Source: a virus
Taxonomy: Duplodnaviria; Caudoviricetes
Strand: one strand, 5' to 3'
IMG/VR virus record: IMGVR_UViG_3300033273_000833
Span: 32,001-96,000 of that record
Length of the DNA: 64,000 bases
A model generated the notes under the pieces. It was not told where the DNA came from. It ran no database searches and saw only the letters and a program-made list of their open reading frames with translations. Position 1 is the first letter of the stretch. Each line of letters opens with the position of its first letter. This document shows positions 30,211 to 64,000 of the stretch, in pieces. The position numbers and the translations under genes were made by a program.

Positions 30211-30780
30211 ATGAGTATAGCTCTTTATAAACCAAATAGTAAAAATACTGGAACTGCAGTTAACCTCAGGGTAGGTTCAGGCAAATACAACATACCCGCT
30301 CTTTATATTGGAGCTATTCAGCAGTACAGTTGGGATGAATCAAGGAAGCTTGGATCCTTCAGTGAAAATGCAAAAAACCCAGATAAAACAATTAACATTA
30401 AATTAAATGAGTTTGAATGCGGTGAGATTTTAAACTCCATTAGAGACAGGGTAGAGTACTCAACTTTCCATAAATTCGATGACAACCAAACTGTAATTAA
30501 GTTTACTCCCTGGGATAAGCAAAGAAAAATTTCTAAATATAATCCTCAAACTAAAACTTTTGATGAAAAATCAGTCACCGTAAGCGCATTTGGTTTAACT
30601 ATCACCAGAAATGGAAACCAAAGCTTTAAAATATCAATAGAGCCAGGAGAAGTTAGGGTAATAGAAGAGTTCATTAAAAATTATCTCACTGATTTTTTTA
30701 AATCTAAATCAGAAAACTTAGAAAAAAATAAAGAAAACACTTCTACAACAGAAAGCCTATCAGAAGACCCTCCTTTTTGA
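30211..30780 (+). CDS. Putative ssDNA-binding protein (Whirly/PC4-like) with SSB-type acidic tip
   Basis: Beta-rich core with IKLNEFECGE; C-terminus TESLSEDPPF. Confidence 0.45.
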   Translation: MSIALYKPNSKNTGTAVNLRVGSGKYNIPALYIGAIQQYSWDESRKLGSFSENAKNPDKTINIKLNEFECGEILNSIRDRVEYSTFHKFDDNQTVIKFTPWDKQRKISKYNPQTKTFDEKSVTVSAFGLTITRNGNQSFKISIEPGEVRVIEEFIKNYLTDFFKSKSENLEKNKENTSTTESLSEDPPF

Positions 30781-32690
30781 TGAAAAAAGTTTTAATCCAC
30801 AGCAATCATTCGAAAGCCTTTACGGGTTTCGGAAAACACACAAAAAACCTTCTTATCTACCTACAAAAAACAGGTAAGTATGAAATTGTGGAGTTTGCTA
30901 ACGGAAGAAAGTGGTCAGATCCATCTCTTTTAAAAATGCCCTGGAAGACATATGGCTCAGCTCCAGATAGCCAGGTTGTAACGGAAAGGGCTGCTCGAGA
31001 CCCAAAACTAAAAAGACACCTAGGTTATGGAGGGATAATGATCGATGAGGTCATAGAAAAAGAAAAGCCTGATGTTTACATTGGAATAGAAGACATCTGG
31101 GCATTTAGCGGTTACTGGGAAAAGCCTTGGTGGAATAAAATAAATCATGCAGTATGGACAACTCTAGACAGTTTACCAATTCTGCCTGAAGCAGTAAATG
31201 CAGCGCCCAGGATTAAAAATTATTTCGTGTGGGCATCTTTCGCTGAAAAAGCAATGCATAAACTTGGTCACGATCACGTTAAAATGATTAGAGGATCTTT
31301 AGATACAGATCATTTTTTCAAGCTACCCAATCAATCACGAATTCAACTTAGGTCATCTTTTAATATTAAAGAGCAAGACTTTATTATCGGATTTGTTTTT
31401 AGAAACCAATTAAGAAAAAGCGTCCCAAATCTGCTCGATGGCTTTAAAATATTTAGAGAAAAAAATCCAACTTCTAACGCAAAATTACTTTTGCATACTA
31501 ATTGGTCGGAGGGTTGGGATATTCCAAGGTTATTAAAAGAAAAAGAAATTGACTCATCACTCATTCTCACCACATACTATTGCCCGAAATGTAAAAATTA
31601 TGAAGTCAAACCTTTTGTTGGTCAACAGCAAAATTGTAAATTCTGTGGCTCAGAAAAAACTCAAAACACTACAGGAGTTAACAGCGGGGTATCAGAAGAT
31701 CAGCTAAACGAAGTATATAATTTAATGGACGTCTATTGCCATCCTTTTACATCAGGAGGCCAAGAAATACCAATACAAGAAGCCAAACTAACAGAGCTAG
31801 TGACTCTAGTAACTAATTATAGCTGCGGAGAAGATTGTTGCACAGATGAAAGCGGAGGCTTACCGCTCAACTGGAAAGAATACAGAGAACCTGGCACACA
31901 ATTTATTAAAGCTACCACAGATCCATTTAGCATATATAAACAATTAAATAAAGTTTTTAATATGAACAAAAAAGACTTAGAAAAAAGGGGTCAACTCGCA
32001 AGAGATTTTGTTCTAAAAAATTATTCTATAGAAGTTATAGGTAGTCAAGTCGAAGAATTTATTGATTCTTGTGAGGTTGTAAATTATGATTTTGATATCA
32101 AGCCTCACTCAAAAAGGAGGAACAATACTTATCCTTTTCAAAATATTGAAGATGGCCTAGAGTGGGTTAAAGATTTATATAAAAATGTTCTTATTAGAGA
32201 TGTAGAGGATAACGATGAAGGCGTTAAGCATTGGATGCAAAAATTAAAAGAAGGGGCTACCAGAGAAGGTATTTATAATTATTTTATTTCGGTTGCCAAC
32301 AAAGAAAACCAAGAGATTGTAGACTCTCTAGACACTATCTTAAGTGAAGATAAAGAAAAGAAAATAGCTATTGTAATTAATGAAAATGCCACTGAAACAT
32401 TCCTATGTACATCTTTATTGCCGTCAATCAAAAGATTATATCCTGAGCATAATATTTATTTCTTCGCACCAAAACATAATCTAGATATTTTAAAAGGGAA
32501 TGAGTATATATATAAATCACTCCCTGTTTCAGAAGATATTTTTGACTGCATATCTATGGAAAAAGAAAAAGGGGACAATAAATTTTTTGACATCATCTAC
32601 TACCCTTCTGACGCCTCTTCTGGAGCCTTTAGATACTGCCACCAAGGTAGAGACAAAATAGAATACGAAACAAAATATGCACATACTTGA
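30777..32690 (+). CDS. GT-B (GT4-like) glycosyltransferase with Zn ribbon and DUF4214-like domain
   Basis: TGFG, FVFRNQLRK, YNLMDVYCHP..GG.EIP.QEA; CPKC..CKFC; LYKNVLIRD..EG..HW..L..G.TR. Confidence 0.75.
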   Translation: MMKKVLIHSNHSKAFTGFGKHTKNLLIYLQKTGKYEIVEFANGRKWSDPSLLKMPWKTYGSAPDSQVVTERAARDPKLKRHLGYGGIMIDEVIEKEKPDVYIGIEDIWAFSGYWEKPWWNKINHAVWTTLDSLPILPEAVNAAPRIKNYFVWASFAEKAMHKLGHDHVKMIRGSLDTDHFFKLPNQSRIQLRSSFNIKEQDFIIGFVFRNQLRKSVPNLLDGFKIFREKNPTSNAKLLLHTNWSEGWDIPRLLKEKEIDSSLILTTYYCPKCKNYEVKPFVGQQQNCKFCGSEKTQNTTGVNSGVSEDQLNEVYNLMDVYCHPFTSGGQEIPIQEAKLTELVTLVTNYSCGEDCCTDESGGLPLNWKEYREPGTQFIKATTDPFSIYKQLNKVFNMNKKDLEKRGQLARDFVLKNYSIEVIGSQVEEFIDSCEVVNYDFDIKPHSKRRNNTYPFQNIEDGLEWVKDLYKNVLIRDVEDNDEGVKHWMQKLKEGATREGIYNYFISVANKENQEIVDSLDTILSEDKEKKIAIVINENATETFLCTSLLPSIKRLYPEHNIYFFAPKHNLDILKGNEYIYKSLPVSEDIFDCISMEKEKGDNKFFDIIYYPSDASSGAFRYCHQGRDKIEYETKYAHT

Positions 32691-33840
32691 ACATTTTTCT
32701 TTAAATTGCGGAATTAAATCATCAAAAGCCTTCATTCAAGAAGACTATATCCCCGTTCCTTTTGATCAATTTATATGCATCAATAATGACTCATCCATAG
32801 ATTCGTTTACATACTCATATTGGTCAGATGTTTTTGACATAATCAAACCTTATCTAGAAAAGTCAAATATTAAAATCTTACAGATTGGTGGACCGAAAGA
32901 TCAACTTCTGCCAAGCTGCGAAGATTACAGGCATATCCAAACTCGACACCAAGGAGCCTACATAATCAATAAAGCACAACTCTTTATTGGTTCAGATATT
33001 TTTTACTCAAACATCGCCTCCCATTTTGGAACCCCAGGCGTTCTCCTATACGGGCCGATACCACCATCTTGCACCAAACCATATTGGAATGAAGATAATT
33101 TTGAAATTTTATGCGAAAACGATAAGTTCTCCTACTCATCTAAAGAACTTCATAAGACAATTGATAAAATAAAACCTGAATCAATAGCAAATGCTATTCT
33201 TAAAAAATTAAAAATACCTTTTGAAAGCGATCAAAAGACAGAGTTTATAGGTCAGCTTTATGACAATAAAATATTCGAAGTCATTCCTAATTTTTCTCCC
33301 AATCCAGATTTCTTAAAAGGCTCATTTGTGACAATGAGAGCTGACTATCAAGAATCTGATGAATTCATAGGTGAGTGGTCGATTGGTCGAAAAATAAATC
33401 TCATAACTAATCGAAAAATTAATCTTGGATTAATACAAGCTATAAAAAACTCTCTACAAGTTATACATTTTGAAGTTTCTAATGACTGCAGTGAAGATGT
33501 TGTAAAAGAAAATATACAGTACTTTAAAGCAATTAAAAAACTTGGTTTAAATATCAGTCTTTTTAGAAAAGATGAAGACAATATTGCTGATCTTCGCTTA
33601 ACTTATTTTGATTGGAATGTAGAAGTTTTATCCCAGAATAAGCCTTCAGAAAATATAACTAAAAATAAAGATTTGTATTTTTATTCTGGCAAGCTGGTCT
33701 TTTCTGATGGCAAAAAATATCCCTCAATAGAGCATGCTATAAACGATCTTGACAGCGACACAGGAATAAATCGGATTGTAGATACAGATTTATTTTGGTT
33801 AGAATCAGATCATTATAGAATAATATCAAAAAAGAGTTGA
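32677..33840 (+). CDS. GT9-like glycosyltransferase-fold protein
   Basis: YSYWSDV, ILQIGG, AYII..AQLFIGSD..SNIA..G.PGVLLYGP. Confidence 0.6.
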   Translation: MHILEHFSLNCGIKSSKAFIQEDYIPVPFDQFICINNDSSIDSFTYSYWSDVFDIIKPYLEKSNIKILQIGGPKDQLLPSCEDYRHIQTRHQGAYIINKAQLFIGSDIFYSNIASHFGTPGVLLYGPIPPSCTKPYWNEDNFEILCENDKFSYSSKELHKTIDKIKPESIANAILKKLKIPFESDQKTEFIGQLYDNKIFEVIPNFSPNPDFLKGSFVTMRADYQESDEFIGEWSIGRKINLITNRKINLGLIQAIKNSLQVIHFEVSNDCSEDVVKENIQYFKAIKKLGLNISLFRKDEDNIADLRLTYFDWNVEVLSQNKPSENITKNKDLYFYSGKLVFSDGKKYPSIEHAINDLDSDTGINRIVDTDLFWLESDHYRIISKKS

Positions 33841-34698: not shown

Positions 34699-35062
34699 GG
34701 GCGTGTACTGGATTCGATTTAAATTGGATTAGTATACTGCAAGTAGGAGTTGCATCTGGCTCCTCAAAAAGGTGCAAACAATTACATGGCAACAAAAACC
34801 GTGTTAAAGCTTTCGGCCTTAAAGCTAAAAAGCTTGCCCTAGCAGCTTAGTTCTGCTACCTCGTAACCTTTGACGCAGATAAAAGGATTACGGGGCCATT
34901 AATCTGCAAAACAGAAAAAGTTTTCTTGCTTCACAAACTGCAAATAATTGAAACAAGAAGTTGGATGTTAATATCATAACTGTAAAAAAAATTAACTAAA
35001 CTTGTAGGCGTATATCTACAGAAAATTTAAAGACGCGGGTTCGACTCCCGCCACGTCCACCA
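34699..35062 (+). ncRNA. ssrA: tmRNA (one-piece, 364 nt)
   Basis: Acceptor stem GGGCGTG/CACGTCC with G3:U and encoded ACCA; TGGATTCGA D-loop motif; T-arm GCGGG-TTCGACT-CCCGC; pk1 AGGAG/CTCCT and TTGCATCT/AGGTGCAA; tag ORF 34788-34850 GNKNRVKAFGLKAKKLALAA*. Confidence 0.97.
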
Positions 35063-35099: not shown

Positions 35100-35687
35100 A
35101 TGCTTGTCAAAAAAATATTCTTAATCACCTTTCCAAATTCGTCTCGATCAAAATATTATACAGAATCAAATTCTCATTCCAAAAAGCATTTGACTTTTTT
35201 TAATGCCATTGATACCAGAGAAGACCCTCTAGGCTTTTGCTCAAAATATGGCATCAAGATCAACATAATGGAAAAATGGAAAAAATATTTTTTGTCAAAT
35301 AGTGGTTCATTTGGCTGCACAATTTCGCATGTAGAGCTTTGGAAAAAAATATCATCAATGAAAAAAGGAGATTTTGTCTGCGTTTGTGAAGACGACATAT
35401 CAGTAGATTCTCTAGAAAAATTAATTAACACAGACCTCAGGAGTATAGACTCAGATATAACTTCGGGTAAAATAATCAACATAGCAGGGTGGGCATTTGA
35501 TCTTTGTTCTGCGGGTTATTTGATTGATTCTGCTGGGGCTAAATATTTATTAAAAGAATTTAACCAAACCATTATAGCCCCTCAGGACAAATTTATGTTT
35601 CAAGTTTGCTTCAAAAAAAATCCAGAACTATTTAAATGGAATCCTGTTTTAAAATTTGCAGAACATTTTAAGAATACAACCTTGTAA
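35100..35687 (+). CDS. GT25 family glycosyltransferase
   Basis: FFNAID, FGCTISH..LW, VCEDD, AGYLI..GA..LL, DKFM. Confidence 0.85.
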   Translation: MLVKKIFLITFPNSSRSKYYTESNSHSKKHLTFFNAIDTREDPLGFCSKYGIKINIMEKWKKYFLSNSGSFGCTISHVELWKKISSMKKGDFVCVCEDDISVDSLEKLINTDLRSIDSDITSGKIINIAGWAFDLCSAGYLIDSAGAKYLLKEFNQTIIAPQDKFMFQVCFKKNPELFKWNPVLKFAEHFKNTTL

Positions 35688-35699
35688 ATATTTTTATTT

Positions 35700-36137
35700 A
35701 TGACTGATATTAACCCATATTACATTGCTTACATGCAAGGTGGTGATTACATTATAAATGCAAAAATAGATGATCTTCCTGTACATGTAGAAAATAATAT
35801 ACAACAACCAGGCCAATATTTTATTAAAATTTGGATACAATATAAAAGTACAGAATGGGAAGTAGACTATAATAAGGGATGGGTAGGATGCTTAAACAGC
35901 GACGAATCACACCTAATCAATAAAACTTTTAAAAACGGCGACAACGGCCCAATTAAAATTGCAAAAATTGAACTTGATGATGTTATATTCATAGTTGATT
36001 TTCCTGACCGAGGTTTCAACTTAAAATTTAAAGAAAACTTTTTTAAAAATAATCCAAATATCAGTAAATATTTAGGCGGAATTATATCTAAAGATCAGTT
36101 ACGATATTTAGATGATTATAAACAAATTTTAATTTAA
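35700..36137 (+). CDS. Hypothetical protein
   Basis: 145-aa ORF with no recognised motif. Confidence 0.6.
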   Translation: MTDINPYYIAYMQGGDYIINAKIDDLPVHVENNIQQPGQYFIKIWIQYKSTEWEVDYNKGWVGCLNSDESHLINKTFKNGDNGPIKIAKIELDDVIFIVDFPDRGFNLKFKENFFKNNPNISKYLGGIISKDQLRYLDDYKQILI

Positions 36138-36141
36138 TTAT

Positions 36142-36216
36142 TTATAAAAATATACTTAGTGCTCCAGCTAATAAAATTAAAAATATTATTTGACTAATTT
36201 CAACGTTGTGTATCAT
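36142..36216 (-). CDS. Possible 24-aa membrane micropeptide (not in the ORF track)
   Basis: MIHNVEISQIIFLILLAGALSIFL*, ATGA-coupled to a 15-codon ORF at 36213..36260. Confidence 0.3.
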   Translation of the reverse strand: MIHNVEISQIIFLILLAGALSIFL

Positions 36217-36269
36217 GCTTGTTTTGTTTGTGCGTGGAAGTTGTTTTTGAAGAATTCCATAATGACTTA

Positions 36270-38075
36270 TTAGAAATACTTTAACCATGTTTCACAAATT
36301 TTTAAATCTAGCTCTGTGATGATTTGTTTGTTAAATAGTTTTTGGTAAATGTTTCGCATTAGTTCTTTGTTGAAGTTTTTATCTATTGACTTTTGTCGAG
36401 GTAAAACATCTTCGCCCAACACATCTACAATAGTTTCGTTAGCCAAATACATGGGAACTTCCGACTCGAAGTCTTGCATCAAATCGTGTTCATTCCTTAG
36501 CTGTGTTACATTAGGTGAGGTGTAAGCCATGTTTTTATTGTTGTACTTCAAGAGGGTATTTGCTACGATTCCTTTTAATATATCACAATAACGAAAAGTT
36601 ACAGAACAAGGTATAAGTAAACCTAGAAAGAGGTTTGGATCTAACCAAAAAGTATTTTGAGTATTAAACGGACAGGTATTCTCATTGGATATAATTATTT
36701 TTTTGCCTTTTTCCCATACAACTGCATGATTGCAAACTAAACGAAAAATAGCATCAACATCTGGATCGTTTTCAACGAGACCATTAATTATGGCAACATC
36801 TTCTTTGTTTTTTGAATTGTCAAATTTAAAGTCTGGATGCGGGTTTTGTTTTATATTGGATAACGGGTAACCTCTTGGCCAAATCCAACTGTTATTGGTG
36901 AAGTATTTAAAAATATTGATCCACGAACTATTATTTTCTTTGATAGTTTGTACATTTTTATCGAGTTCAAGAACTGAGTCAAAGTTGTCGTGCGGTATGT
37001 TGTCATCATCAGTCTCGTATATAACCTCGTAACCTTTTTTAATAGCGTAAAGATAACCTAAGTTTTTACGACCATAATGGTTGTAGGGTATCAAATCACA
37101 CAATTCAGGAAACAATTTTTTTTGATTTTCAACATCCAAAAATATACAATCTTCATTTTTATATGTGCCTGGAGTTTTTAGATCACCCACGATGATTACA
37201 TCATATTCTGAATTGCTTATGTGTTTACGAATAGTTTCCGTAGGTTCATTAATGGTGGTTATTATGACGCATTTTTTCTTTTGAAAAATATCATTTAGTA
37301 AATCGAGTAGTTTTGGGTTTTCACCAAATTTAATTGGATGTAAAAATAAATCAAATTTTTTATTAAATCTGTTCTTTATATACGGTGGTTTAGAGGTGAG
37401 ATTTCTGGAACTCCACAGGACAGTTCCACTTATGTTATTATAGTTCTGTCGTTCAGGTTCAATATTCCTAATAATTGTTGGTATTGCTATTTCTAAAAAA
37501 ACACCATAATTTGCGAATAGTTGAAATAAATCAAAAATTTTGCTCGAAAGATATTTTTTTGGTAAATAAAAATAATCAGCAAATTCTTTACAATATTTAT
37601 TAATACCAAAGTCATGATATTCCGCATTTTTTTCTAGTTTAGATATTGCTTTTATGCCGTAAGGGCCGTGCCACCAGCCCCCTTTAAGTGCATCTAGTGC
37701 ATCTAGTGGTTTTATATTAAAACCGTGACCTGTAGCAGAGCAGGCCTCTGTATTGTAAATAATTTTTCCTGTGTCATATAAATTCAATATATTTGTGTTG
37801 ATTATGTTATCATCCATTGTATAGAATAGACCATCGCATTCGTTTATATCGTTCTTGTAATTATCGTACAAATGCTTAAAAATTTTATGAGCAAGGTATC
37901 CACGCTCTATATCAATATAGTTAACATCGTTGTGCAATTTTTCATCGGTATCTTTGGGTGTATCAGAGTATACAATAATTTTTTTAAAATGGCTTTTATA
38001 CAAATCGCAAATTTTTTGCCTGCTGTCTAAGCATTTGCTATAGTTGAATACTAATAGTAATATTGAATTTGTCAT
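36270..38075 (-). CDS. STELLO/DUF288-like two-domain glycosyltransferase
   Basis: IVVGDLKTP, RKNLGYLYAI, IYETDDDN, NDPDVDAIFRL, PFNTQNT, FRYCDI; N-terminal second GT-like domain with YTMDD. Confidence 0.8.
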   Translation of the reverse strand: MTNSILLLVFNYSKCLDSRQKICDLYKSHFKKIIVYSDTPKDTDEKLHNDVNYIDIERGYLAHKIFKHLYDNYKNDINECDGLFYTMDDNIINTNILNLYDTGKIIYNTEACSATGHGFNIKPLDALDALKGGWWHGPYGIKAISKLEKNAEYHDFGINKYCKEFADYFYLPKKYLSSKIFDLFQLFANYGVFLEIAIPTIIRNIEPERQNYNNISGTVLWSSRNLTSKPPYIKNRFNKKFDLFLHPIKFGENPKLLDLLNDIFQKKKCVIITTINEPTETIRKHISNSEYDVIIVGDLKTPGTYKNEDCIFLDVENQKKLFPELCDLIPYNHYGRKNLGYLYAIKKGYEVIYETDDDNIPHDNFDSVLELDKNVQTIKENNSSWINIFKYFTNNSWIWPRGYPLSNIKQNPHPDFKFDNSKNKEDVAIINGLVENDPDVDAIFRLVCNHAVVWEKGKKIIISNENTCPFNTQNTFWLDPNLFLGLLIPCSVTFRYCDILKGIVANTLLKYNNKNMAYTSPNVTQLRNEHDLMQDFESEVPMYLANETIVDVLGEDVLPRQKSIDKNFNKELMRNIYQKLFNKQIITELDLKICETWLKYF

Positions 38076-38091
38076 TTTTTAAATTTCTTCT

Positions 38092-38847
38092 TCATTTAGG
38101 GGAATATTTACGTAAAAAAATGTATTCGGATGATTCTTTTGGTATGTTAGAGAATACTTGCGCCGCTGTCCTAGTTTGATCTATGTTACAATATATAAAT
38201 TGTTCATTGTCTATGTAATCAATACTATTGTATTTTAACGCATTTGCCCAATAATACTCGTCATGCAAAAAGTATTTAACACATTCATTTTTATCATGGG
38301 GAAGATACTTCTTGGCATAATCATCGTTAAAACCAACAAAAATATCGGATTTTAATATTTCAGGTGTTTTTAACTTATAAAAATCTTCTTTTGATATACA
38401 GAAAAACATATTTTGCTTGACCCATTCAACTTCACTAATTTTTGACTTAAATTTAGCAGTCGTTATACTATTGTATTTGCTTGAATTAAATTTAGCTTGT
38501 GATGTTGTTGGGTTTTTTTGTATTTTTATATTAGTATGTTTGTTATTATTTACAAACGATATAGATCGCCTTAGTGGTAGCATATCTCCCGACATTATGT
38601 ATACAACATCACACCCTTTATCAAATAAATCATGAAATAATAAGTTCGTCGCGACAACCAGGCTAGAATGCCCCCATTCGGTTGGTATAGTATTAATACA
38701 ATTTATTGGAAATGGTAATTTATTTTGCACCCTTCCTTTTGCATGCACAGATATTATCGTTTCATGTTTTATAGAATTAAAAAACGCATCAAGATGTGAT
38801 ACATTATGTATTTTATTATATACCATGAAGCCAAAACCAATTTTCAT
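38092..38847 (-). CDS. Core-2/I-branching (GT14-like) glycosyltransferase
   Basis: ISVHAK, TEWGHSSLV.A..LL, MSGDMLPL, HDEYYW. Confidence 0.7.
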   Translation of the reverse strand: MKIGFGFMVYNKIHNVSHLDAFFNSIKHETIISVHAKGRVQNKLPFPINCINTIPTEWGHSSLVVATNLLFHDLFDKGCDVVYIMSGDMLPLRRSISFVNNNKHTNIKIQKNPTTSQAKFNSSKYNSITTAKFKSKISEVEWVKQNMFFCISKEDFYKLKTPEILKSDIFVGFNDDYAKKYLPHDKNECVKYFLHDEYYWANALKYNSIDYIDNEQFIYCNIDQTRTAAQVFSNIPKESSEYIFLRKYSPK

Positions 38848-39521
38848 AACTTGTGGAGGTTAAAAAGTTGTGGATATTTTTCATGCATAATTGTTAAGAC
38901 CATTTCTTCATCATATATAATGAAATTATTATCAACAAATTGTAGGCATTCTATATATTTCTTTGTAAATTCAGGAATTATGTGTCTTGGGAGTTTTATA
39001 ACTTGAGCCAATATCTTTATGGGTGGTAATGTATTTTTTAGTAAACCTTTATATGGTTTATTTGGGAAGTTGTCTGATTTTGCATATTGATTGATGTAAC
39101 ACTTATTGCTATCACTGGAGGTTATTGACTGTAAATTTCTTGTCTTCACGCAATCAACCCACATTAAATAATCAGCATCTGTATAGTCTAAAATTTTTTC
39201 AAAAAGAAGAATTTTGCTTGTCCATATTGTAGCTAACTTTAAAAAAGCATTGGATTTAACGTGCCTCCCAAATTTGAAATAAACTGCATCTCGTGATTTG
39301 CAAAAATTAGTTAAGTTTTTAAGGTACGGCAAACTTGGAAGATTATTAAATTCCAAATCAATTTTATTGGAGAAGCCTACAACCTGATCTTGCGAACATA
39401 TAAAATAATCTAAATTTTTGTTTCGAGCATGTTTTATATGACCTTGTCTGTTTGAAAATTTTGGATTGTTTTCTACATGCCAGTAGGCGGAAAAGGTTGT
39501 TGTTTTTTTCATATTGATCAT
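38844..39521 (-). CDS. HtrL/WlaTC-like glycosyltransferase
   Basis: IWTSKILL.EK, YLMWVDC, YDEEMVLT. Confidence 0.55.
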   Translation of the reverse strand: MINMKKTTTFSAYWHVENNPKFSNRQGHIKHARNKNLDYFICSQDQVVGFSNKIDLEFNNLPSLPYLKNLTNFCKSRDAVYFKFGRHVKSNAFLKLATIWTSKILLFEKILDYTDADYLMWVDCVKTRNLQSITSSDSNKCYINQYAKSDNFPNKPYKGLLKNTLPPIKILAQVIKLPRHIIPEFTKKYIECLQFVDNNFIIYDEEMVLTIMHEKYPQLFNLHKL

Positions 39522-39526
39522 AATTA

Positions 39527-39688
39527 CTATTCTCCAAATTTGTAACCGAAATACTCAATGTGCGTACTACCCCCATATGGGTCTCCGTTGTACCCCGTGT
39601 CCGATCTTCCGAAGACAGCCTCCTCGACTGATTCTCCGCCACATTTTGCAAAATGCACAAATATAATTTTTTGTTTATGACAAATCAC
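39527..39688 (-). pseudogene. Internally deleted sulfotransferase remnant (53 codons)
   Basis: GTG-ICHKQKIIFVHFAKCGGESVE..GGSTH joined directly to IEYFGYKFGE*, i.e. the N- and C-termini of the two intact paralogues. Confidence 0.85.
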
Positions 39689-39690
39689 TA

Positions 39691-40452
39691 TTATCTATGT
39701 TTGCGGTTTCCTAAGCCTGTAATATATTTCCTGTTTTTCTGTATATACAGATTATCATATATCCCTTTGGATTTGGAGATAACAGTGTTTTTATTATAAA
39801 TCCCAGCAATTCCGCTAAACGAGGATATTCCAGAAGGAAATAATATGTCGCATAATATCATGTCATTGATTGCAGTTAGCTCTGGTGTATTGCGATCATA
39901 TACATTTACTCTCATTCCATGAGTGTTAAGCTCCCTTAAATTTATATTTCCGTCAGTATGTATATTTATTGATAAGGGGGGATTTATGTAGTAGTGGATA
40001 TAATCTAAAATATTTTTTAGGTCTTCAGTAGAGCAAGCTCTATATCTAACTGGTTTACAGCCTTTATATTCCTCATTAGCAGTATCTCCTCTTCGCACAT
40101 GTATACAGATATTGGTCTGATTAACTTGTTGAAGAGTGTTTTCTAGAGGGGTGTAGTTTTTAATGATTGATTGCATAAATTTGCTACTAAAATCAGCAAA
40201 TAAGCCACGTTTGATAATTGGAGTATAATTAGCTTCACCGCTAAAGATGGTGATCTTATTTAATTCTTTCTCACAAATGTTATGAAATTTAGAGCCTAGG
40301 TTAAAGACAGACTCGTATGGATCCTCGAGTGGTGTGTGTATATATTCGAAGCCTTCTTGTTTAGCAAAGTAAGCGGTCCATAGTCTGCTATAAATTTGCA
40401 TACCAATCCTATCTGTTTTTTGACAGGTGATATATTTTTTTGCTTTTCTCAT
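39691..40452 (-). CDS. GT11/NodZ-like (fucosyltransferase-like) glycosyltransferase
   Basis: DRIGMQI, ICIHVRRGD, D.ILCD..SSFS..A. Confidence 0.65.
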   Translation of the reverse strand: MRKAKKYITCQKTDRIGMQIYSRLWTAYFAKQEGFEYIHTPLEDPYESVFNLGSKFHNICEKELNKITIFSGEANYTPIIKRGLFADFSSKFMQSIIKNYTPLENTLQQVNQTNICIHVRRGDTANEEYKGCKPVRYRACSTEDLKNILDYIHYYINPPLSINIHTDGNINLRELNTHGMRVNVYDRNTPELTAINDMILCDILFPSGISSFSGIAGIYNKNTVISKSKGIYDNLYIQKNRKYITGLGNRKHR

Positions 40453-40516
40453 TCAGTTAGTAATGTTTGCAAGTTATTTAAGCTGACGAATTCAATATTC
40501 TGGTTGTGGAATAAAT

Positions 40517-41122
40517 TTAATCTCCAAATTCATAATTAAAATACTCAATGTCTTTTGCATATTTTTCTGCAACTATTTGCTTCGTTTCTTCATCGTAATA
40601 TTCGGTGTAGTGTTTTTTGTTTCTCTTGTTCATATGTGGCAATTTCAATCCTTTCATATTCAAGTAATTACACACACACATAAAATTATTTTCAAAATTT
40701 TCAAATCTACCAACAAAATCAACAGCTATATTACCTTCATTATCTTTCAAGAAATCATATTGAGCAACAGAGTGAGATGGATCAAGGTGTATGGGCGATA
40801 GTAGAAACTTTTTTAAGCTTTGTTTTTTTGGTCCGCCGAAATAAAAATAATCTGATATGGCCCTGTCCCATGGGTTTCTAACAAAAGCAAAAGAAAAATA
40901 ATAATTCTTTAATTGTGGGTGAATTTTATAAACCTCACTGATTGTAAGGTGTTGAAGATATTTTCCTGTATACTCATCCCTGCCAAGCAATAATTGCTTG
41001 TCGCAAAAATTATTTGGGAATTTTTTTTTGTCCCATAAATTATAACCAAATGCAGTTTCAATACTAGAACCGCCGCACTTGGGTATATGAATGAAGATAA
41101 ATTTATGCTTATGGCTTATCAT
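40517..41122 (-). CDS. Sulfotransferase (Sulfotransfer_2 family)
   Basis: 5'-PSB FIHIPKCGGSSI; 3'-PB FVRNPWDRAISDY; FVGRFEN; KDIEYFNYEF. Confidence 0.9.
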   Translation of the reverse strand: MISHKHKFIFIHIPKCGGSSIETAFGYNLWDKKKFPNNFCDKQLLLGRDEYTGKYLQHLTISEVYKIHPQLKNYYFSFAFVRNPWDRAISDYFYFGGPKKQSLKKFLLSPIHLDPSHSVAQYDFLKDNEGNIAVDFVGRFENFENNFMCVCNYLNMKGLKLPHMNKRNKKHYTEYYDEETKQIVAEKYAKDIEYFNYEFGD

Positions 41123-41142
41123 TGTACTGAATAATATACACC

Positions 41143-41784
41143 TTATTTTAACCAGCTTCCATTCCAGTGGTGAACCGCATAAGCTTCAGGATGCGTTTTG
41201 GAAAAATCTTCTTCCCTACGAAACTTTTCTTGCCAATAGTAAGGGTATACAGTTTTCTTAAGAGAATCGCGACCATCTGGCATTCCTATTTCGTGTCCTA
41301 ATTTTTCGGTTATGTATGCTGGTCCATATTTATAATCAGAGTTTTCTTTATGGCCATGAGATTTTTTTCTCGAAGGTAGTCCGTCTATCAAGCGTTTTAC
41401 ATCTCTATTATGCTTGGAGGCTCCAAAAAAAGCTCCGCATATTTTTTTATGTTCTTGATGAAATAAAACAATTTCTTTTTGTTCAAAGAGAGGATTTATA
41501 TTTTTTAAGCATTCAAAGTCGGTATCAATATACAATCCTCCAAACTGATAAAGGATTTCAAACCTTAAGATATCAGATTTTTCAGAAAAATTTTCGCAAC
41601 TCTCTAGAATTTCAGGGTAGGTAATTTTTAAATTATCTTTTATTTTTTTATCGTCCCAAAGAATATGTATCCATTCGGGGTTTTTACTTTTCCATGTACC
41701 TTGCCAGTATAACTCTTGTTTTGATAATGAACTTTCGCCCATATGTATTTGATGAAATATTTTTGGTATTATTGAATTTCTCAT
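41143..41784 (-). CDS. GT32 (DXD, OCH1-like) glycosyltransferase
   Basis: IPKIFHQ, KSDILRFEILYQFGGLYIDTD, AVHHWNGSW. Confidence 0.9.
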   Translation of the reverse strand: MRNSIIPKIFHQIHMGESSLSKQELYWQGTWKSKNPEWIHILWDDKKIKDNLKITYPEILESCENFSEKSDILRFEILYQFGGLYIDTDFECLKNINPLFEQKEIVLFHQEHKKICGAFFGASKHNRDVKRLIDGLPSRKKSHGHKENSDYKYGPAYITEKLGHEIGMPDGRDSLKKTVYPYYWQEKFRREEDFSKTHPEAYAVHHWNGSWLK

Positions 41785-41786
41785 TT

Positions 41787-42371
41787 TTATTCTCCAAATT
41801 TATACCCAAAATACTCAATGTCCTTTGCGTATTTTTCCGCAACAAGTTGACGAGTTTCATCATCGTAATATTTTGTGTAATGGGTGGTTTCTGTTTTGTA
41901 ATTGTGTGGTAGTGTTTTTCCAGAAATACCTATATTTCTACAAACATTATTGAAGTCTTCGTGTAAATTTTCAAATCTTCCTATAAAATCCATTTGTTCA
42001 AGTGGTTTTAATATTTTCATGTAATCGTATCTGTGATATGGATCTCCTACATTGCTACTAAAAAATTTTTTTAAAAAACATTTAAAAGTTGTTCCGTGAT
42101 AAAATTTTTTGACTTTTTTTAGTGGGTATTTGTGTGTTGAATTTGTAAACCATTTAAACTCTGAAACCATTTTATCGTAAGGGTTTCTTACAAACGCAAA
42201 CTTATAATAATTTTTATACTTATCCAACTTCAGAACCTCTGCATGGGTCGTGTGAGTGTGACCATTAAAAAAGAATTCAAAATCTTGCAAGTATCTTTCC
42301 ATGCTTGTGCCCGCACACTTCGGTATATGAATAAATACAGTTTTATGTTTATCACTTATCATTTTTATCAA
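41787..42371 (-). CDS. Sulfotransferase (Sulfotransfer_2 family)
   Basis: FIHIPKCAGTSM; FVRNPYDKMVSEF; FIGRFEN; KDIEYFGYKF. Confidence 0.9.
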   Translation of the reverse strand: MIKMISDKHKTVFIHIPKCAGTSMERYLQDFEFFFNGHTHTTHAEVLKLDKYKNYYKFAFVRNPYDKMVSEFKWFTNSTHKYPLKKVKKFYHGTTFKCFLKKFFSSNVGDPYHRYDYMKILKPLEQMDFIGRFENLHEDFNNVCRNIGISGKTLPHNYKTETTHYTKYYDDETRQLVAEKYAKDIEYFGYKFGE

Positions 42372-43183
42372 ATTTTGTTTTCTTTCTTCATAAGAGTTTC
42401 GTCCTTTACCTCTGGATGGTCACTGCTTAATAAATGTTGCAATGTATAATCTGAATACCAATTATTTAATTTTATTTTTTTTTCACAGTTTTCTTTGGAT
42501 ATTATTCTATAATGGTAGCACAACAAAAATCCAGTCTCAATATCTACCTCACGTAAATTATCATAAAACGGATTTAATTCACTTGGTTGGTTGCCAACTC
42601 CGTCGCGAATTTGCTCTGGAGTTCCCATGTGTTCACATGGATGATGGTCTTTTATCTTTGTAAAATATGTTGGTTTAAAAATACATTTAACTTCAATTTT
42701 TTCATAACGACATCTAAACTTGTGAATTTTGTGTGGATGTTTTTTATCATGATTCCACCTATAAGTTATTTCATTTAAAATGCTTTTTGGATTTTTTTTC
42801 AAGGAATTGCAAGACATCATCACCCAAGGTACTTTTATGCAATGGGCGTCCTTGAAAGTTGTTTGTAATTCATCCCTAATAGTTTTATTGAGATTTTTCT
42901 TTGTAACTATAAACTCATCAATGTCCACATATATTACCCACTCGTAATTATCCTTAAGTTTATCCACCCAATTTAAAATATAATTGTCCTTTGTAATTTC
43001 CTTTTCAAAGAAAATGTTTATGTTTTCTTTATTTAACAATTCATCATATATGGATTTATCTTCGGAATCGTCATCTATTATATTAATTTCGTCAACTCCT
43101 TGACTTAGATAATGATTGCAAAACTCTGCAACAAAAAACTCATCTTTACAACGAGCTATTAATCCTAAAAATTTTTTGTGCAT
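42368..43183 (-). CDS. GT2-like/GT92-like glycosyltransferase
   Basis: ARCKDE..AEF..HY..GVD...IDDDS, WVIYVDIDEFI, KCIF. Confidence 0.75.
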   Translation of the reverse strand: MHKKFLGLIARCKDEFFVAEFCNHYLSQGVDEINIIDDDSEDKSIYDELLNKENINIFFEKEITKDNYILNWVDKLKDNYEWVIYVDIDEFIVTKKNLNKTIRDELQTTFKDAHCIKVPWVMMSCNSLKKNPKSILNEITYRWNHDKKHPHKIHKFRCRYEKIEVKCIFKPTYFTKIKDHHPCEHMGTPEQIRDGVGNQPSELNPFYDNLREVDIETGFLLCYHYRIISKENCEKKIKLNNWYSDYTLQHLLSSDHPEVKDETLMKKENKI

Positions 43184-43189
43184 TGACTC

Positions 43190-43993
43190 TTATTCAGGTC
43201 TTTTGCCTAAAGGTTTTCCATCTTGACCAATTTCTCCAGCCCTAATTTTGGTTGCAGAAACATTTTGAAGCTCTTTACTTAATTCAAGCTGCTCAATGTT
43301 ATATCCTACGCCTCTACCATAAAATACATCTGTAATATTTGGAAGCTCAACAACTTTAATTTTATTCCCAAACTCAATGCATGCAGAATGAATTTCTGCT
43401 TTAACTTTTTCAAAATTATATGGATTCTTTTCGTCAATTCCGCCGACATCTCTTAAAGCAATGCAGCATTGCCCAGTTCTTTTAATCGCTTCAGCAACTA
43501 ATGTTTTATGGCCAACATGAAAAGGTTGATACCTCCCAATTAATAAAGCTGTTGGAGCTTGATTATCCCAGGATTCTGTTTCATTTAATTTATTCAATAC
43601 TCTTTCAACCCATTCTTCTGGAGATCCGTCAGTTAGTCTTACGTCGTAATTCAAAGGTCTTTCAAACATTTTATTAGTGTCTTCGTATCTACCTTCCATA
43701 ATCCTATCGACCCATACAACAAAATCAGCAGCAAATGCTTTTCTTGTTTCTTGGGTAGGGCATACAAAATCGGCGACAGAGTAACCTCCGCCCATTGAAG
43801 ACCAAGAACATAGTTTACCCATTCTTTCGGCATGCTTAATTCTATCTTCTTCCGAAAACCCTAGCTCTGAATATATATCTTGCCTAACGGCATCAGCGTT
43901 AAACCAGGCTGCGTTAATTTTTTTTACTAAAATCTCAGCCAACGTTGTTTTGCCAGATCCTGGGAGCCCCATAATCAAAATTTTTCTTTTCAT
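43190..43993 (-). CDS. Fusion: adenylylsulfate-kinase-like domain plus HIGH-superfamily nucleotidyltransferase
   Basis: GLPGSGKTT, NADAVR, LGFSEEDR, ADFVCP; then IGRYQPFHVGH, NPY, VSATKIR. Confidence 0.8.
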   Translation of the reverse strand: MKRKILIMGLPGSGKTTLAEILVKKINAAWFNADAVRQDIYSELGFSEEDRIKHAERMGKLCSWSSMGGGYSVADFVCPTQETRKAFAADFVVWVDRIMEGRYEDTNKMFERPLNYDVRLTDGSPEEWVERVLNKLNETESWDNQAPTALLIGRYQPFHVGHKTLVAEAIKRTGQCCIALRDVGGIDEKNPYNFEKVKAEIHSACIEFGNKIKVVELPNITDVFYGRGVGYNIEQLELSKELQNVSATKIRAGEIGQDGKPLGKRPE

Positions 43994-44001
43994 ATCTCTG
44001 T

Positions 44002-44007
44002 TTACAC
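44002..44007 (-). promoter_or_regulatory. GTGTAA putative late-promoter motif heading the glycan operon
   Basis: GTGTAA-N8-ATG(43993) on the minus strand. Confidence 0.7.
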
Positions 44008-44015
44008 GCTTTTTT

Positions 44016-44345
44016 TTATTTTATCTTCTTATTTATTAAACATGCTAGACTAGGCACGGAAAACATACTAAAGCCAGCAAAAATCATATTTAAATTAAAA
44101 AACCAACAACAAAACAAAGAAGCAAGCAAAGACAACCAAGTGCCATAACATAAGGGACAGCTCAATAGTTCTCCCAGCTTACCCCAATTATCAATTATAT
44201 AATCATGCAAATCATCTAATGTATATATTTTTTCTTTTATAAACAATGACAATATATATACTTTTAAATTAGTATACTCCAATACGGCAATAATATTAGA
44301 AACAAACAAAATGCAAGCTAAATAAATTAATAAATAATTAATCAT
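44016..44345 (-). CDS. DUF1360-like membrane protein
   Basis: GELLSCPLCYGTW flanked by TM segments; start moved to the ATG overlapping the upstream gene's end. Confidence 0.6.
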   Translation of the reverse strand: MINYLLIYLACILFVSNIIAVLEYTNLKVYILSLFIKEKIYTLDDLHDYIIDNWGKLGELLSCPLCYGTWLSLLASLFCCWFFNLNMIFAGFSMFSVPSLACLINKKIK

Positions 44346-44517
44346 CTTGAATGCGAGGAAGAATGAACGATGTGTATTTCCTACGCACACTAGCTTTTCT
44401 GCACGAAGAACATCCTCCAGGTTTATTCACTTCTGCCAAGTAATCTTTTTTCATTTGCTGACAACCATCAAAGTTTATTTCTTGACAAGTTTGCTCGGGC
44501 GTTTTATTTAAATCCAT
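44338..44517 (-). CDS. Small Cys-containing protein (CSSC); start uncertain
   Basis: C..C..GGCSSCRK; coupled to the downstream gene. Confidence 0.5.
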   Translation of the reverse strand: MDLNKTPEQTCQEINFDGCQQMKKDYLAEVNKPGGCSSCRKASVRRKYTSFILPRIQDD

Positions 44518-44567
44518 AAATATTCTTATGAGATTCATTTGGGCTGGTGTTTTTGGATTCATTTTTC

Positions 44568-44596
44568 TTGACAAATTTGATTACATATATTATACT
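44568..44596 (+). promoter_or_regulatory. sigma70 promoter (leaderless geometry)
   Basis: TTGACA-N17-TATACT-N6-ATG(44603). Confidence 0.8.
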
Positions 44597-44602
44597 TATA
44601 AT

Positions 44603-45142
44603 ATGAAAAATATTCTAGAAAAAACTAAAACTTATCTGGTTGGCCACATGCAATACATTAGTGGGAGGAACTGGCGAGAAGAAGTTACTCAAAAGCTTTC
44701 TGATATTAACATTACATGCTTCGACCCTTATAAAAAACCCTTTATTAAAGATGTCGAAGAAGATGAGGTCTCAAGACAAGAAATGGAAACTTGGATGAAA
44801 ACCAAGCAGTACGACAGAGTAACGGAAAGAATGAAAATGGTAAGAGCTTATGACCTAAATTTAGTTGATCGTAGCGATTTTATCATCGCTCATCTAGTTC
44901 CTAGCGTTGCATCTTGGGGTAGTGCCGAAGAAATTGTTACTGCGGTAAGAATGAAAAAACCTATCTTTATCAGCATGGAAGGCGGTAAGTCCCAAACTCC
45001 ACTCTGGATGCTAGGAATGCTTCCTCATAAATACATTTACAATTCAGTAGAAGAAATAGTAGATATGCTTTTTGCTATCAATGAAGGGTCAAAAACTATA
45101 GACTCAGATCGCTGGCGCCTATTAAGACATGAATTTAGATAG
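44603..45142 (+). CDS. Nucleoside 2-deoxyribosyltransferase-like protein
   Basis: TYLVG, WRE, FDP, DL..VDRSDFIIA, GSAEE; start moved downstream of the promoter. Confidence 0.65.
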   Translation: MKNILEKTKTYLVGHMQYISGRNWREEVTQKLSDINITCFDPYKKPFIKDVEEDEVSRQEMETWMKTKQYDRVTERMKMVRAYDLNLVDRSDFIIAHLVPSVASWGSAEEIVTAVRMKKPIFISMEGGKSQTPLWMLGMLPHKYIYNSVEEIVDMLFAINEGSKTIDSDRWRLLRHEFR

Positions 45143-45628: not shown

Positions 45629-45657
45629 TTGACATTCTAAATAATTTTTACTATAAT
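45629..45657 (+). promoter_or_regulatory. sigma70 promoter (leaderless geometry)
   Basis: TTGACA-N17-TATAAT-N7-ATG(45665). Confidence 0.85.
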
Positions 45658-62570: not shown

Positions 62571-63326
62571 ATGCAAGAATCATTAGCTATATTAAGTTCT
62601 TATTTTTCTAAAAAAAAGCACCCCAATGACCCTGCGGATGCTCATGTAGTCGGAAGAACTGTTGATGGTAAAGTTAAAAACGACGAAATATCCTATATTA
62701 AACCTTGGTATGATTCTATTAATAAATTAAACCTTAAAGGATTCATATTTCACGACAATCTTTCGGAATACTTTGTAGAGCAGTATACAACAGAAAATGT
62801 AACTTTTATTAAAGTTGAAGATTCGATATACTCTAACAATGATTATAGATTTTTCTGTTTTAACAATTTTTTGCAAGAGAATAAATTCAATTACGTTTTT
62901 CATTCTGATGCATCAGATGTTACGGTAGCTCAAAATCCAATTAAATTAATTAAAAATAATCCAGAAATTTCATATTTCGCCTGTAAAGACAGCATTAAAC
63001 TCAAACAGTTTGGCGATTACTTAAGCGTTCATGATAAATTTAATTTTGAAGATAAAATGATGTTCATGCTGAACATGGATTCATGGGATTTAATTAATAT
63101 GGGGGTTATCGGGGGAGCTTACGAAGATATGTCTAATTTTTATTCTAGATTCGTTGAAATTAGACAATCTATGGGTGTTCCAGAATTTAATTCTGATATG
63201 TGGTTATGCCAGTACTTACTCAGGTCTCAATTCAAAGATAAAAAGTTTATTATGGGTGAGCCTGTTTGTAGTGAATTTAAACAATACCAAAACGAAAGAG
63301 AAGATGTCTATTTCATCCACAAGTAA
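62571..63326 (+). CDS. Glycosyltransferase-like protein
   Basis: FIFHDNL, NDYRF, FHSDASDV, NMGVIGG, DM..Q; upstream of a GT2 gene. Confidence 0.5.
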   Translation: MQESLAILSSYFSKKKHPNDPADAHVVGRTVDGKVKNDEISYIKPWYDSINKLNLKGFIFHDNLSEYFVEQYTTENVTFIKVEDSIYSNNDYRFFCFNNFLQENKFNYVFHSDASDVTVAQNPIKLIKNNPEISYFACKDSIKLKQFGDYLSVHDKFNFEDKMMFMLNMDSWDLINMGVIGGAYEDMSNFYSRFVEIRQSMGVPEFNSDMWLCQYLLRSQFKDKKFIMGEPVCSEFKQYQNEREDVYFIHK

Positions 63327-64000
63327 AATTACGGTTTATTGCTCTACCTATAATTCAATTAAATGGATTGAAGGTTATTTAAATAATATCAACTCTCAGA
63401 TTTGTGAAGCCTTTGAATTATTTTTCATAGACGCAGGCTCAACAGATGGCTCTCTTGAGAAAATTAAAAATTTTAAATTCAGCCCACATATTAATGTGTC
63501 TATTTTTGAACCTGGATTTTTATCCATTTACGGAGCATGGAATTTAGCAGTCGCTAAAGCTAGTACTCCATATGTTATGAATTTCAATACAGACGATAGA
63601 CTTAATTTTTGCGCCCTTTCAACCTATCATAGGTATATCGAAGAGTTCCCAGAGATAGATTTATTTTACGGAGTTCACAATTTCGTATCTGAAATTGGCG
63701 GAACCAACCTACCTATAGGTGAATATTGGAAAAACTTAACTGACTCCCTACTATCTGAATCAGAGAAAAAATTAATGTTTACAATTAATCCCTGTGGACC
63801 ATTTCCTTTAGTCAAAAAAGCCTCCCTGATGGACGCTGGTGAATTTGATGAAAAATATTTTTCTTCTGCGGATTATGACATGTGGTTGCGAATGTTTTCG
63901 ATGGGCATGAGATTTAAAAGAACTCAAGATATCATTGGTGACTTTTTATATAGGCCTGATTCAGCCTCTCAAGCTAAAATCAAAGAGTCAGAATCGCACG
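63304..64000 (+). CDS. GT2 family glycosyltransferase (runs off the window; not in the ORF track)
   Basis: Open from ATG 63304: ITVYCSTYN, FIDAGSTDGS, IYGAWN, NFNTDDRL, ADYDMWLR. Confidence 0.9.
   Translation, partial: MSISSTSKITVYCSTYNSIKWIEGYLNNINSQICEAFELFFIDAGSTDGSLEKIKNFKFSPHINVSIFEPGFLSIYGAWNLAVAKASTPYVMNFNTDDRLNFCALSTYHRYIEEFPEIDLFYGVHNFVSEIGGTNLPIGEYWKNLTDSLLSESEKKLMFTINPCGPFPLVKKASLMDAGEFDEKYFSSADYDMWLRMFSMGMRFKRTQDIIGDFLYRPDSASQAKIKESESH

Follow-up and report, generated by a model that had tools for sequence, protein, structure and literature searches.

Glycosylation by enzymes of viral origin has been described in giant viruses and in a small number of phages. The capsid glycans of the chlorovirus PBCV-1 and the fibril glycans of Mimivirus are built onto the particle by enzymes of the virus itself, and the virions of mycobacteriophages are reportedly O-glycosylated (Freeman et al. 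2023, cited in PMC12619734); to our knowledge, none of these systems includes a sulfotransferase or an enzyme that makes 3'-phosphoadenosine 5'-phosphosulfate (PAPS). In cells, the gene clusters for sulfated exopolysaccharides carry priming, polymerisation and export genes and rely on CysDN/CysC. The present analysis concerns a glycan island at positions 35100–44007 of a 64,000-nucleotide stretch of DNA (the window, which covers bases 32,001–96,000 of the IMG/VR virus record IMGVR_UViG_3300033273_000833) from an uncultured marine phage, whose record of 203,067 bp has a G+C content of ~33% and is rated 100% complete. In this island, two sulfotransferase genes are interleaved with glycosyltransferase (GT) genes in a tight operon behind an enzyme resembling adenosine 5'-phosphosulfate (APS) kinase, an arrangement that points to a sulfated glycan, as proposed in a first-pass annotation of the window. 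With moderate confidence, the island is read here as encoding a predicted pathway in the cytoplasm that builds a sulfated glycan containing fucose and includes a PAPS-supplying step.

In full-text literature searches, neither phages rich in sulfotransferases, nor sulfated glycans made by a phage, nor the fusion enzyme described below were found to have been reported. The role of phage sulfotransferases was called unclear in a 2023 paper on OM43 phages (PMC10580990), and a paper on the 'moraphage' lineage mentions glycosyltransferases and no sulfotransferases. A study of Pontiella describes bacteria that make sulfated glycosaminoglycan-like exopolymers (PMC7356697); the clusters of such bacteria would presumably combine GTs with PAPS-dependent sulfotransferases, as the phage island does.

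Sulfotransferases and the APS-kinase-like fusion

The core of the island is a minus-strand run that opens with the ATG at 43993 and closes with the stop codon at 36270, in which the genes overlap or abut with a largest gap of 64 nt and no minus-strand terminator-like site was found; the single run described earlier is, in this respect, contiguous. Sulfotransferase 1 (40517..41122, minus strand, 201 aa) and sulfotransferase 2 (41787..42371, minus strand, 194 aa) match Sulfotransfer_2 (PF03567) with E-values of 9e-19 and 1e-18 and scores of 69.0 and 68.9 bits, respectively, against a Pfam gathering cut-off of 22. The 5'-phosphosulfate-binding (5'-PSB) loop (PKxGxS/T) is present in both proteins, as HIPKCGGSS and HIPKCAGTS, and so is the 3'-phosphate-binding (3'-PB) motif (RNPxxRxxS), as VRNPWDRAIS and VRNPYDKMVS, the R, P and S of which were found to be invariant in 25 phage homologues. 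Both genes are intact, as had been claimed, and keep these PAPS-binding motifs. The two proteins are paralogues (42% identical); sulfotransferase 1 additionally matches phrog_3347 (6e-23) and is soluble, lacking a transmembrane segment. In a whole-genome profile search Sulfotransfer_2 was matched by these two genes only, and the sole sulfotransferases of the genome stand together in this operon. No relative was retrieved when the single sequences were searched against solved structures, and the sulfotransferase profile found one match there, a marginal one to heparan sulfate 6-O-sulfotransferase (E 0.008). Both genes are predicted to encode PAPS-dependent sulfotransferases acting on carbohydrate.

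A third copy, also noted earlier, survives on the minus strand as a remnant of ~55 codons (39527..39694) that has suffered an in-frame internal deletion. It was recognised by tblastn against the paralogues, aligning with their N-terminus (E 2e-5) and their last 10 residues, and its translation joins a 5'-PSB-like loop directly to the C-terminal tail, which points to ongoing gene turnover in the island. Some relatives (G001, G015, G013 and G022, behind loci L004, L028, L019 and L041) have up to 11 Sulfotransfer_2 matches per record, part of these matches being two or three sulfotransferase domains in a single open frame of 390–657 aa; compared with them the present phage, having just two such genes besides the remnant, stands at the poor end of the range.

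The first gene of the run (43190..43993, minus strand) encodes a two-part protein in which an APS-kinase-like P-loop domain (residues 1–140) is fused to a small HxGH nucleotidyltransferase domain (residues 143–267). It is the sole PF01583 match in the genome (4.7e-12), and its earlier designation as an APS-kinase-like fusion was borne out, the C-terminus being cytidylyltransferase-like. The family corresponds to phrog_10255 (3.5e-52 over the full length) and has more than 7,000 metagenomic homologues. When the family profile was compared with the PDB, the best matches were all APS kinases (1e-13 to 1e-8), and NadM NMNAT was matched at 1.8e-8. Similarly, in the fold comparison (VIA) the kinase domain aligned with APS kinases at Z 17.5–18.6 (rmsd 1.6–2.5 Å), whereas gluconate kinase, dephospho-CoA kinase and nicotinamide riboside kinase gave Z values of 16.0, 10.5 and 10.2, respectively, and the Foldseek matches listed (ranks 1–49) were APS kinases or APS-kinase-type domains of PAPS synthases or ATP sulfurylases. 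The kinase signature (L)DGDxxR ... LGFSxxDR appears in the fusion as NADAVR ... LGFSEEDR, with two deviations, the first Asp of DGD being Asn and the Asn after DR being His. The P-loop and residues D34, R37, F46, R51 and R57 do not vary among 24 homologues of 40–89% identity. By both sequence profile and fold, the kinase domain is specifically APS-kinase-like.

The C-terminal domain, of ~120 aa, carries the motifs GRYQPFHVGH and VSATKIR, both invariant in the family, which fit the NadM-type GRFQPxHxGH and ISxTxxR and belong to the class (GRxQPxHxGH, ISATKIR) of the HxGH nucleotidyltransferases; its sequence matches reach only the first ~60–70 residues of NMNATs, whose domain comprises ~170 aa. 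In the whole 203-kb genome no PF01747 ATP sulfurylase above cut-off and no CysD-type PF01507 protein was found. An inorganic pyrophosphatase is encoded at genome positions 112841–113287 (PF00719, 1.7e-47), and its activity could help to drive sulfate activation as well as the formation of nucleotide sugars. The fusion is probably the PAPS-supplying enzyme of the phage, a putative role in which, as we infer, its C-terminal domain would adenylylate sulfate.

Association of the fusion with sulfotransferases in other phages

Gene neighbourhoods of the relatives were taken from IMG/VR loci, and the association was counted over 80 loci that carry the fusion. A Sulfotransfer_2 gene was found within 10 kb of the fusion in 29 of them, within 1.7 kb in 20 and within 400 bp in nine, and the association extends to lineages only 40–46% identical to the fusion of this phage. 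In one such locus (L060) the sulfotransferase starts 2 bp after the fusion, an instance of translational coupling, and in another (L054) it is divergent and lies behind a B12-radical S-adenosylmethionine (SAM) gene. Two records devoid of Sulfotransfer_2 carry instead a Sulfotransfer_1/3 gene ~5 kb from the fusion. Counting this genome, 12 of the 13 fusion-bearing records that are at least 90% complete have a sulfotransferase, and the number of matches across all fusion-bearing records rises to 11 per record, with arrays in relatives of up to nine sulfotransferases per 20 kb. The sulfotransferase motif alone was found in at least 599 stretches in IMG/VR. Among the GenBank phages, this type of sulfotransferase matches 3 of 50,697 records, one of which, that of the Stenotrophomonas phage DLP_6, carries the complete fusion as well.

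Two of these neighbourhoods (L060, 6805–12733; L054, 7739–10792) hold the fusion and a sulfotransferase, accompanied either by a B12-binding radical SAM enzyme and a 2-oxoglutarate (2OG)-Fe(II) oxygenase or by an epimerase plus a PIG-L deacetylase, and represent a different, conserved sulfation cassette. In the Xylella phage Bacata (NC_052973.1, 29138–29878; L087) a fusion 38% identical to the present one is a conserved early-region gene of the Casjensviridae, situated beside genes for a COG3236-type protein, MazG and a topoisomerase; a gene with the annotation cysteine dioxygenase is close by. In close relatives of the present phage, the conserved neighbour of the fusion is a nucleoside-2-deoxyribosyltransferase-like gene (73–86% identity), found in the window at 44528–45142 on the plus strand. 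Near-consensus sigma-70 promoters were located at 44568–44596 and 45629–45657; the former sits inside the listed open reading frame (ORF), which suggests a later, near-leaderless start for that gene.

Glycosyltransferases and fucose supply

Three of the GT assignments made previously were confirmed by Pfam, namely the GT2_4/GT92-like protein that follows the fusion (42368..43183, minus strand, 271 aa; PF13704 1.9e-12, PF01697 1.3e-7), the GT32-type protein with its DXD sugar-binding region between the two sulfotransferases (41143..41784, minus strand; PF04488 6.7e-16, Caps_synth 5e-6) and the GT25-family protein (35100..35687, 195 aa; PF01755 1e-14, 55 bits against a cut-off of 24), which also matches the glucosyltransferase family phrog_2835 (6.5e-8) and is encoded on the plus strand, opposite to the main run. 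Two others remain leads. The GT11-like, fucosyltransferase-type candidate (39691..40452, minus strand) reaches only 14.2 bits for PF01531 (E 0.025) over 37 residues, below the cut-off of 23.9, and gave no relative among solved structures in a single-sequence search at E up to 5. In favour of the assignment, its HVRRGD sequence fits the GDP-fucose-binding motif HxRRGD, it matches a glycosyltransferase family, phrog_2644 (1.4e-3), and its rank-7 ESM Atlas cluster has 30% GT11 members; the Atlas record begins at residue 18, and translation is likely to start at the ATG of codon 18 (40401). The GT14/Branch-like candidate (38092..38847, minus strand, 251 aa) has no direct Pfam match and is supported by an ESM Atlas structural lead, with a TM-score of 0.74 over 223 residues to clusters of which 93–100% of the members carry PF02485.

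The last gene of the run (36270..38075, minus strand) encodes a 601-aa protein for which the earlier STELLO-like label could not be sustained, as STELLO scores 20.8 bits, below its cut-off. After an N-terminal domain of approximately residues 1–260, its residues 314–555 match MtdL (PDB 7xpr/7yua) with an E-value of 5e-25, identifying a GT75-type mutase homologue. MtdL is a GT75 nucleoside diphosphate-pyranose mutase that interconverts GDP-L-fucopyranose and GDP-L-fucofuranose, as well as the corresponding GDP-L-galactose pair, and the key residues of the family are the Mn2+-binding DDD and His, the nucleophilic Arg159, Asp195, Ser228-Gln229, Arg257 and Asp260 (PMC9937993). At these positions the phage protein has kept DDD, PRG (Arg159), DPDVDA, TQ (for SQ), RYCD (for RFGD) and NEH. 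Asp87, required for activity on GDP-L-fucopyranose and also different in plant RGPs (PMC9937993), is not conserved (NHYGRKN in the phage protein vs HSDNRRN in MtdL), so that the sugar specificity of the mutase-like domain may differ. Relatives of this domain (window 36270–37274; loci L116–L155) that are 59–72% identical come mainly from contigs of giant viruses (GVMAG), which measure up to 258 kb and have a G+C content of 22–49%; this suggests that giant viruses and the lineage of this phage have exchanged genes. For the GT11-like and GT14-like proteins, too, part of the ESM Atlas neighbours belong to the Nucleocytoviricota.

Between the GT14-like gene and the sulfotransferase remnant lies an orphan (38844..39521, minus strand, 225 aa) of a small, mostly viral family, formerly labelled HtrL-like, a label supported by no family or structure match. 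No Pfam, NCBIfam, PHROG or PDB match was obtained for it, even with a 31-member profile, and only 39 representative clusters were found among 1.84 billion proteins. WxD and DEE positions do not vary within the family, which includes one fusion to an FkbM-type methyltransferase; it may represent an undescribed glycan-modifying enzyme.

The supply of fucose is encoded in a second glycan island on locus L114 (genome 94000–108000, from window position 62000), which extends beyond the end of the window; it opens with a GT2 gene (63154..64000, plus strand; PF00535 3e-11) and ends at genome position 103,819. It comprises, besides the GT2 gene, a formyltransferase (Formyl_trans_N, 9e-29), a DegT aminotransferase (2e-57), a methyltransferase, GMD (PF16363 7e-102, TIGR01472 1.4e-92), the GDP-L-fucose synthase Fcl (NF047922 8e-130) and a GalE/TviC-like epimerase. 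GMD and Fcl, which lie ~25 kb beyond the first island, remain below the strict NCBIfam equivalog cut-offs, yet they score far above any other family. Their presence indicates that the phage makes GDP-L-fucose itself, lending substance to both the GT11-type protein and the MtdL-like mutase, and a furanose form of fucose in the product is a possibility. The suggestion that the glycan might be fucosylated was accordingly strengthened, by GMD and Fcl, by the HVRRGD protein and by the GDP-L-fucopyranose mutase homologue within the island. The second island could also yield a GDP-linked N-formyl amino-deoxyhexose of the perosamine type.

Flanking genes, upstream motif and genome setting

The island follows a transfer-messenger RNA (34699–35062) that was recognised before and was confirmed by ARAGORN. 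Next to the GT25 gene is a 145-aa ORF (35700..36137, plus strand) with zero matches in Pfam, PHROG and NCBIfam, and just upstream of the motif that heads the run a hydropathy scan revealed a small membrane protein (44016..44390, minus strand) with ~4 hydrophobic segments and a weak DUF1360 match (E 0.007); the membership of both in the island is uncertain. The genes upstream (30777..33840, plus strand), previously called GT4 and GT9-like, gave only sub-threshold signals of these kinds (Glycos_transf_1 E 2.2e-4, GT9 E 0.011) beside a DUF4214 match (1.5e-6); they are kept in loci L030 and L031 and are possibly part of a wider glycan region. As to the two GT genes that had been placed at the end of the window, the GT2 gene at 63154 is one, and the other is not a GT.

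The motif GTGTAA lies at 44002..44007 on the minus strand, 8 nt ahead of the start codon (ATG) of the fusion, and it was correctly observed that it heads both the run and the tail genes. Its count in the window (27 vs 27.3 expected) is that of chance. Genome-wide, 35 of its 72 copies stand 3–25 nt before an ORF starting with ATG, with a modal spacing of 8 nt, and this placement marks it as a genuine upstream signal. No Shine-Dalgarno sequence was found between GTGTAA and the ATG. Sites in the window include 1135, 15463, 15507, 17799, 26572, 44002, 54882, 55957 and 56372, and the genes headed by the motif include the tail-fibre genes, the large subunit of ribonucleotide reductase (RNR), a ClpC-like gene, UvdE, the pyrophosphatase and GMD. 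GTGTAA is a phage-specific promoter or initiation signal; its interpretation as a late promoter was rejected, given that it also precedes the RNR large subunit, the ClpC-like gene, UvdE and GMD. Because the motif is shared with replication and repair genes, the late timing once proposed for the island is not established. Near-perfect sigma-70 promoters were found on the plus-strand neighbours, and the island lacks a consensus sigma-70 promoter, which argues only against host-type early expression.

Upstream of the island are replication genes on the plus strand (those for the RNR small subunit, RecA-like, DnaB, primase, DnaE and a ClpB/ClpC-like ATPase), and downstream of it lies a minus-strand tail module that includes a 1,911-aa gpJ-like protein. 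A megablast search of the island against GenBank phages gave zero matches, and the DnaE is at most 31% identical to that of any phage record, so that the phage has no cultured relative. The closest cellular sulfotransferases, mostly from Flavobacteriaceae and metagenome-assembled genomes (MAGs) of candidate phyla, are 29–42% identical, too distant for a host assignment, and a close cellular relative of the GMP reductase, sought as a further clue to the host, was not found. An Opitutales host, with a coat mimicking its food as bait, had been envisaged; no host signal supports that idea.

Proposed pathway and alternative explanations

The route envisaged would begin with the fusion, whose HxGH domain probably makes an adenylylated substrate, most economically APS from ATP and sulfate, and whose APS-kinase-like domain would convert APS into PAPS; APS formation would be pulled forward by the kinase and by the phage pyrophosphatase. 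The soluble enzymes of the GT2/92, GT32, GT11, GT14 and GT25 types would build the chain from nucleotide sugars, among them GDP-L-fucose from the phage GMD and Fcl, which the GT75 mutase-like domain may turn into a furanose donor, and the two Sulfotransfer_2 enzymes would add sulfate from PAPS. A hydropathy scan of the island enzymes detected zero transmembrane segments, and the 203-kb genome was found to contain no Bac_transf initiating phosphoglycosyltransferase, WecA-type enzyme or Wzx flippase and no thymidylate-synthase-type hydroxymethylase for DNA glycosylation, a combination in keeping with an acceptor in the cytoplasm, for instance a structural protein, as in giant viruses and mycobacteriophages. 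Because the phage lacks priming and export genes of its own, a virion protein is slightly favoured as the acceptor over a host envelope precursor. None of the GT genes of the window recurs systematically beside the fusion in the 80 related loci, and such strong variation of the island between related phages argues for diversifying selection on an exposed structure.

Several observations weigh against this pathway. In the kinase domain, the PF01583 match spans only positions 5–91 of the 152-position profile, and ~25 residues of the APS-kinase lid are absent, ~15 residues separating the VD strand from the FERP motif where canonical APS kinases have roughly 40. The C-terminal domain is nearest by sequence to NadM-type NMNAT (E 4e-9), and its fold ties between PPAT (Z 9.4), NadR (8.9), NadM (8.8) and the ATP sulfurylase 1v47 (7.9, 115 residues), so that its acceptor cannot be read from the fold. 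The fusion of DLP_6 lies among replication genes, 90 kb from the sulfotransferase, and no sulfotransferase was detected in the fusion-bearing 56-kb Casjensviridae (Salvo, Sano, Bacata) or in a complete 117-kb record; a Bacata-type fusion of this kind is not explained by PAPS supply. Additionally, several GT assignments are sub-threshold, and a search of the genome for acceptor candidates (collagen-like repeats, Ser/Thr-rich tracts) found none.

The same chemistry might instead act on lipid-linked envelope precursors of the host (lipopolysaccharide (LPS) O-antigen, capsule or exopolysaccharide), with priming and export left to the host and the cell surface remodelled, for example to block superinfection or to keep phage progeny from adsorbing again to debris. 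This we consider possible, though on the unlikely side. Enzymes of the GT25, GT32/Caps_synth and GT2 types are characteristic of LPS and capsule synthesis, peripheral soluble GTs commonly use undecaprenyl-linked intermediates, the island is hypervariable in the manner of O-antigen loci, and the nearest cellular sulfotransferases occur in marine Flavobacteriaceae and other bacteria. It is weakened by the missing initiating phosphoglycosyltransferase, WecA-type enzyme and flippase, by the nearest viral relatives of three island proteins being sequences of giant viruses, in which virus-encoded glycosylation targets the particle, and by surface conversion being best known from temperate phages, although no search for integration genes was made. 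More remote is the modification of phage DNA bases, of a secreted small molecule or of a free oligosaccharide, which we regard as improbable. Phage GT arrays reportedly hypermodify DNA with glycans (Pyle et al. 2024, cited in PMC12619734), a dCMP deaminase and the nucleoside-deoxyribosyltransferase-like gene are nearby, and the B12-radical SAM enzyme and 2OG oxygenase that accompany the fusion and sulfotransferase in two distant lineages suggest small-molecule tailoring. Attachment to DNA is made less credible by the lack of a hydroxymethylase that would create the attachment point; moreover, the GT families present are builders of carbohydrate chains, and we know of no sulfated DNA base.

The fusion itself could be unrelated to sulfate, an NMNAT/PPAT-like adenylyltransferase joined to a 3'-OH kinase (compare NadR and CoA synthase) that serves NAD- or CoA-type metabolism or counter-defence, the sulfotransferases then using PAPS of the host. 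The affinity of the C-terminal domain to NadM NMNATs in sequence and to PPAT as top fold match speaks for it, as do the Casjensviridae, in which the fusion stands without sulfotransferases beside the COG3236/NADAR-type gene, MazG and topoisomerase, the place of the DLP_6 fusion among replication genes, and the nucleoside-deoxyribosyltransferase-like gene as conserved neighbour in close relatives. Since the fusion occurs without, or unlinked to, a sulfotransferase in some phages, a cofactor-type role stays a live rival; it is nevertheless judged rather doubtful, for the kinase domain resembles APS kinases far more closely than dephospho-CoA kinase or nicotinamide riboside kinase, the Asp, Arg and Phe that contact APS do not vary within the family, and the neighbourhood link to two sulfotransferase families across divergent lineages would otherwise be hard to explain.

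If the sulfated-glycan pathway is accepted, phage sulfotransferases, a theme expanded in many marine phage genomes of ~200 kb, are found here within a readable pathway that includes a candidate donor-supplying enzyme and a fucose supply. A glycan of this kind on the virion would change the view of the surface charge of marine phages, of their stickiness to sulfated algal polymers, of their decay and of host recognition. A bolder proposal, tentative and not to be expected with any assurance, is that the fusion is a minimal, non-canonical PAPS synthase, in which an NMNAT-derived domain of ~120 aa was recruited as a novel type of sulfate adenylyltransferase and joined to a lid-less APS kinase. 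An abundant lineage of uncultured marine phages, whose genomes have up to 11 sulfotransferase matches, could then cover its virions with hypervariable sulfated glycans of fucose or fucofuranose without depending on the host to activate sulfate. Should the small nucleotidyltransferase domain activate sulfate, it would be a third and very compact way of doing so, of practical use in PAPS production.

Comparison with known systems

The fusion shares with PAPS synthases and CysC the N-terminal APS-kinase fold, the P-loop, the catalytic Asp and the APS-contacting Arg and Phe, and with human PAPSS1 the order of the domains, from kinase to HxxH-class nucleotidyltransferase, chain 1x6v_B aligning over model residues 1–259. 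It differs from canonical APS kinases in its shortened lid, and from PAPSS1/2 and the Sat-CysC fusions (Aquifex, 2gks) in its second domain, which is NadM/NMNAT-like and of ~120 aa, without PF01747, in place of a PUA and ATP-sulfurylase unit of ~400 aa. Similarly, the GT75-like domain resembles MtdL and Hyg20 over ~250 residues with the metal-binding and catalytic positions kept, and the phage also makes the presumed substrate, GDP-L-fucose; the phage protein differs from them in an extra N-terminal domain of ~260 aa and in the changed Asp87 position, and MtdL and Hyg20 serve antibiotic pathways, not glycan pathways. Unlike the cellular clusters for sulfated exopolysaccharides, the island is devoid of priming, polymerisation, export and CysDN/CysC genes. 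It is closer in design to the systems of PBCV-1, Mimivirus and the mycobacteriophages, in which, as in this phage, the virus brings its own soluble GTs and nucleotide-sugar enzymes, no export machinery is present and the clusters vary between relatives; if attached to the virion, the glycan of the phage island would add sulfation to this design.

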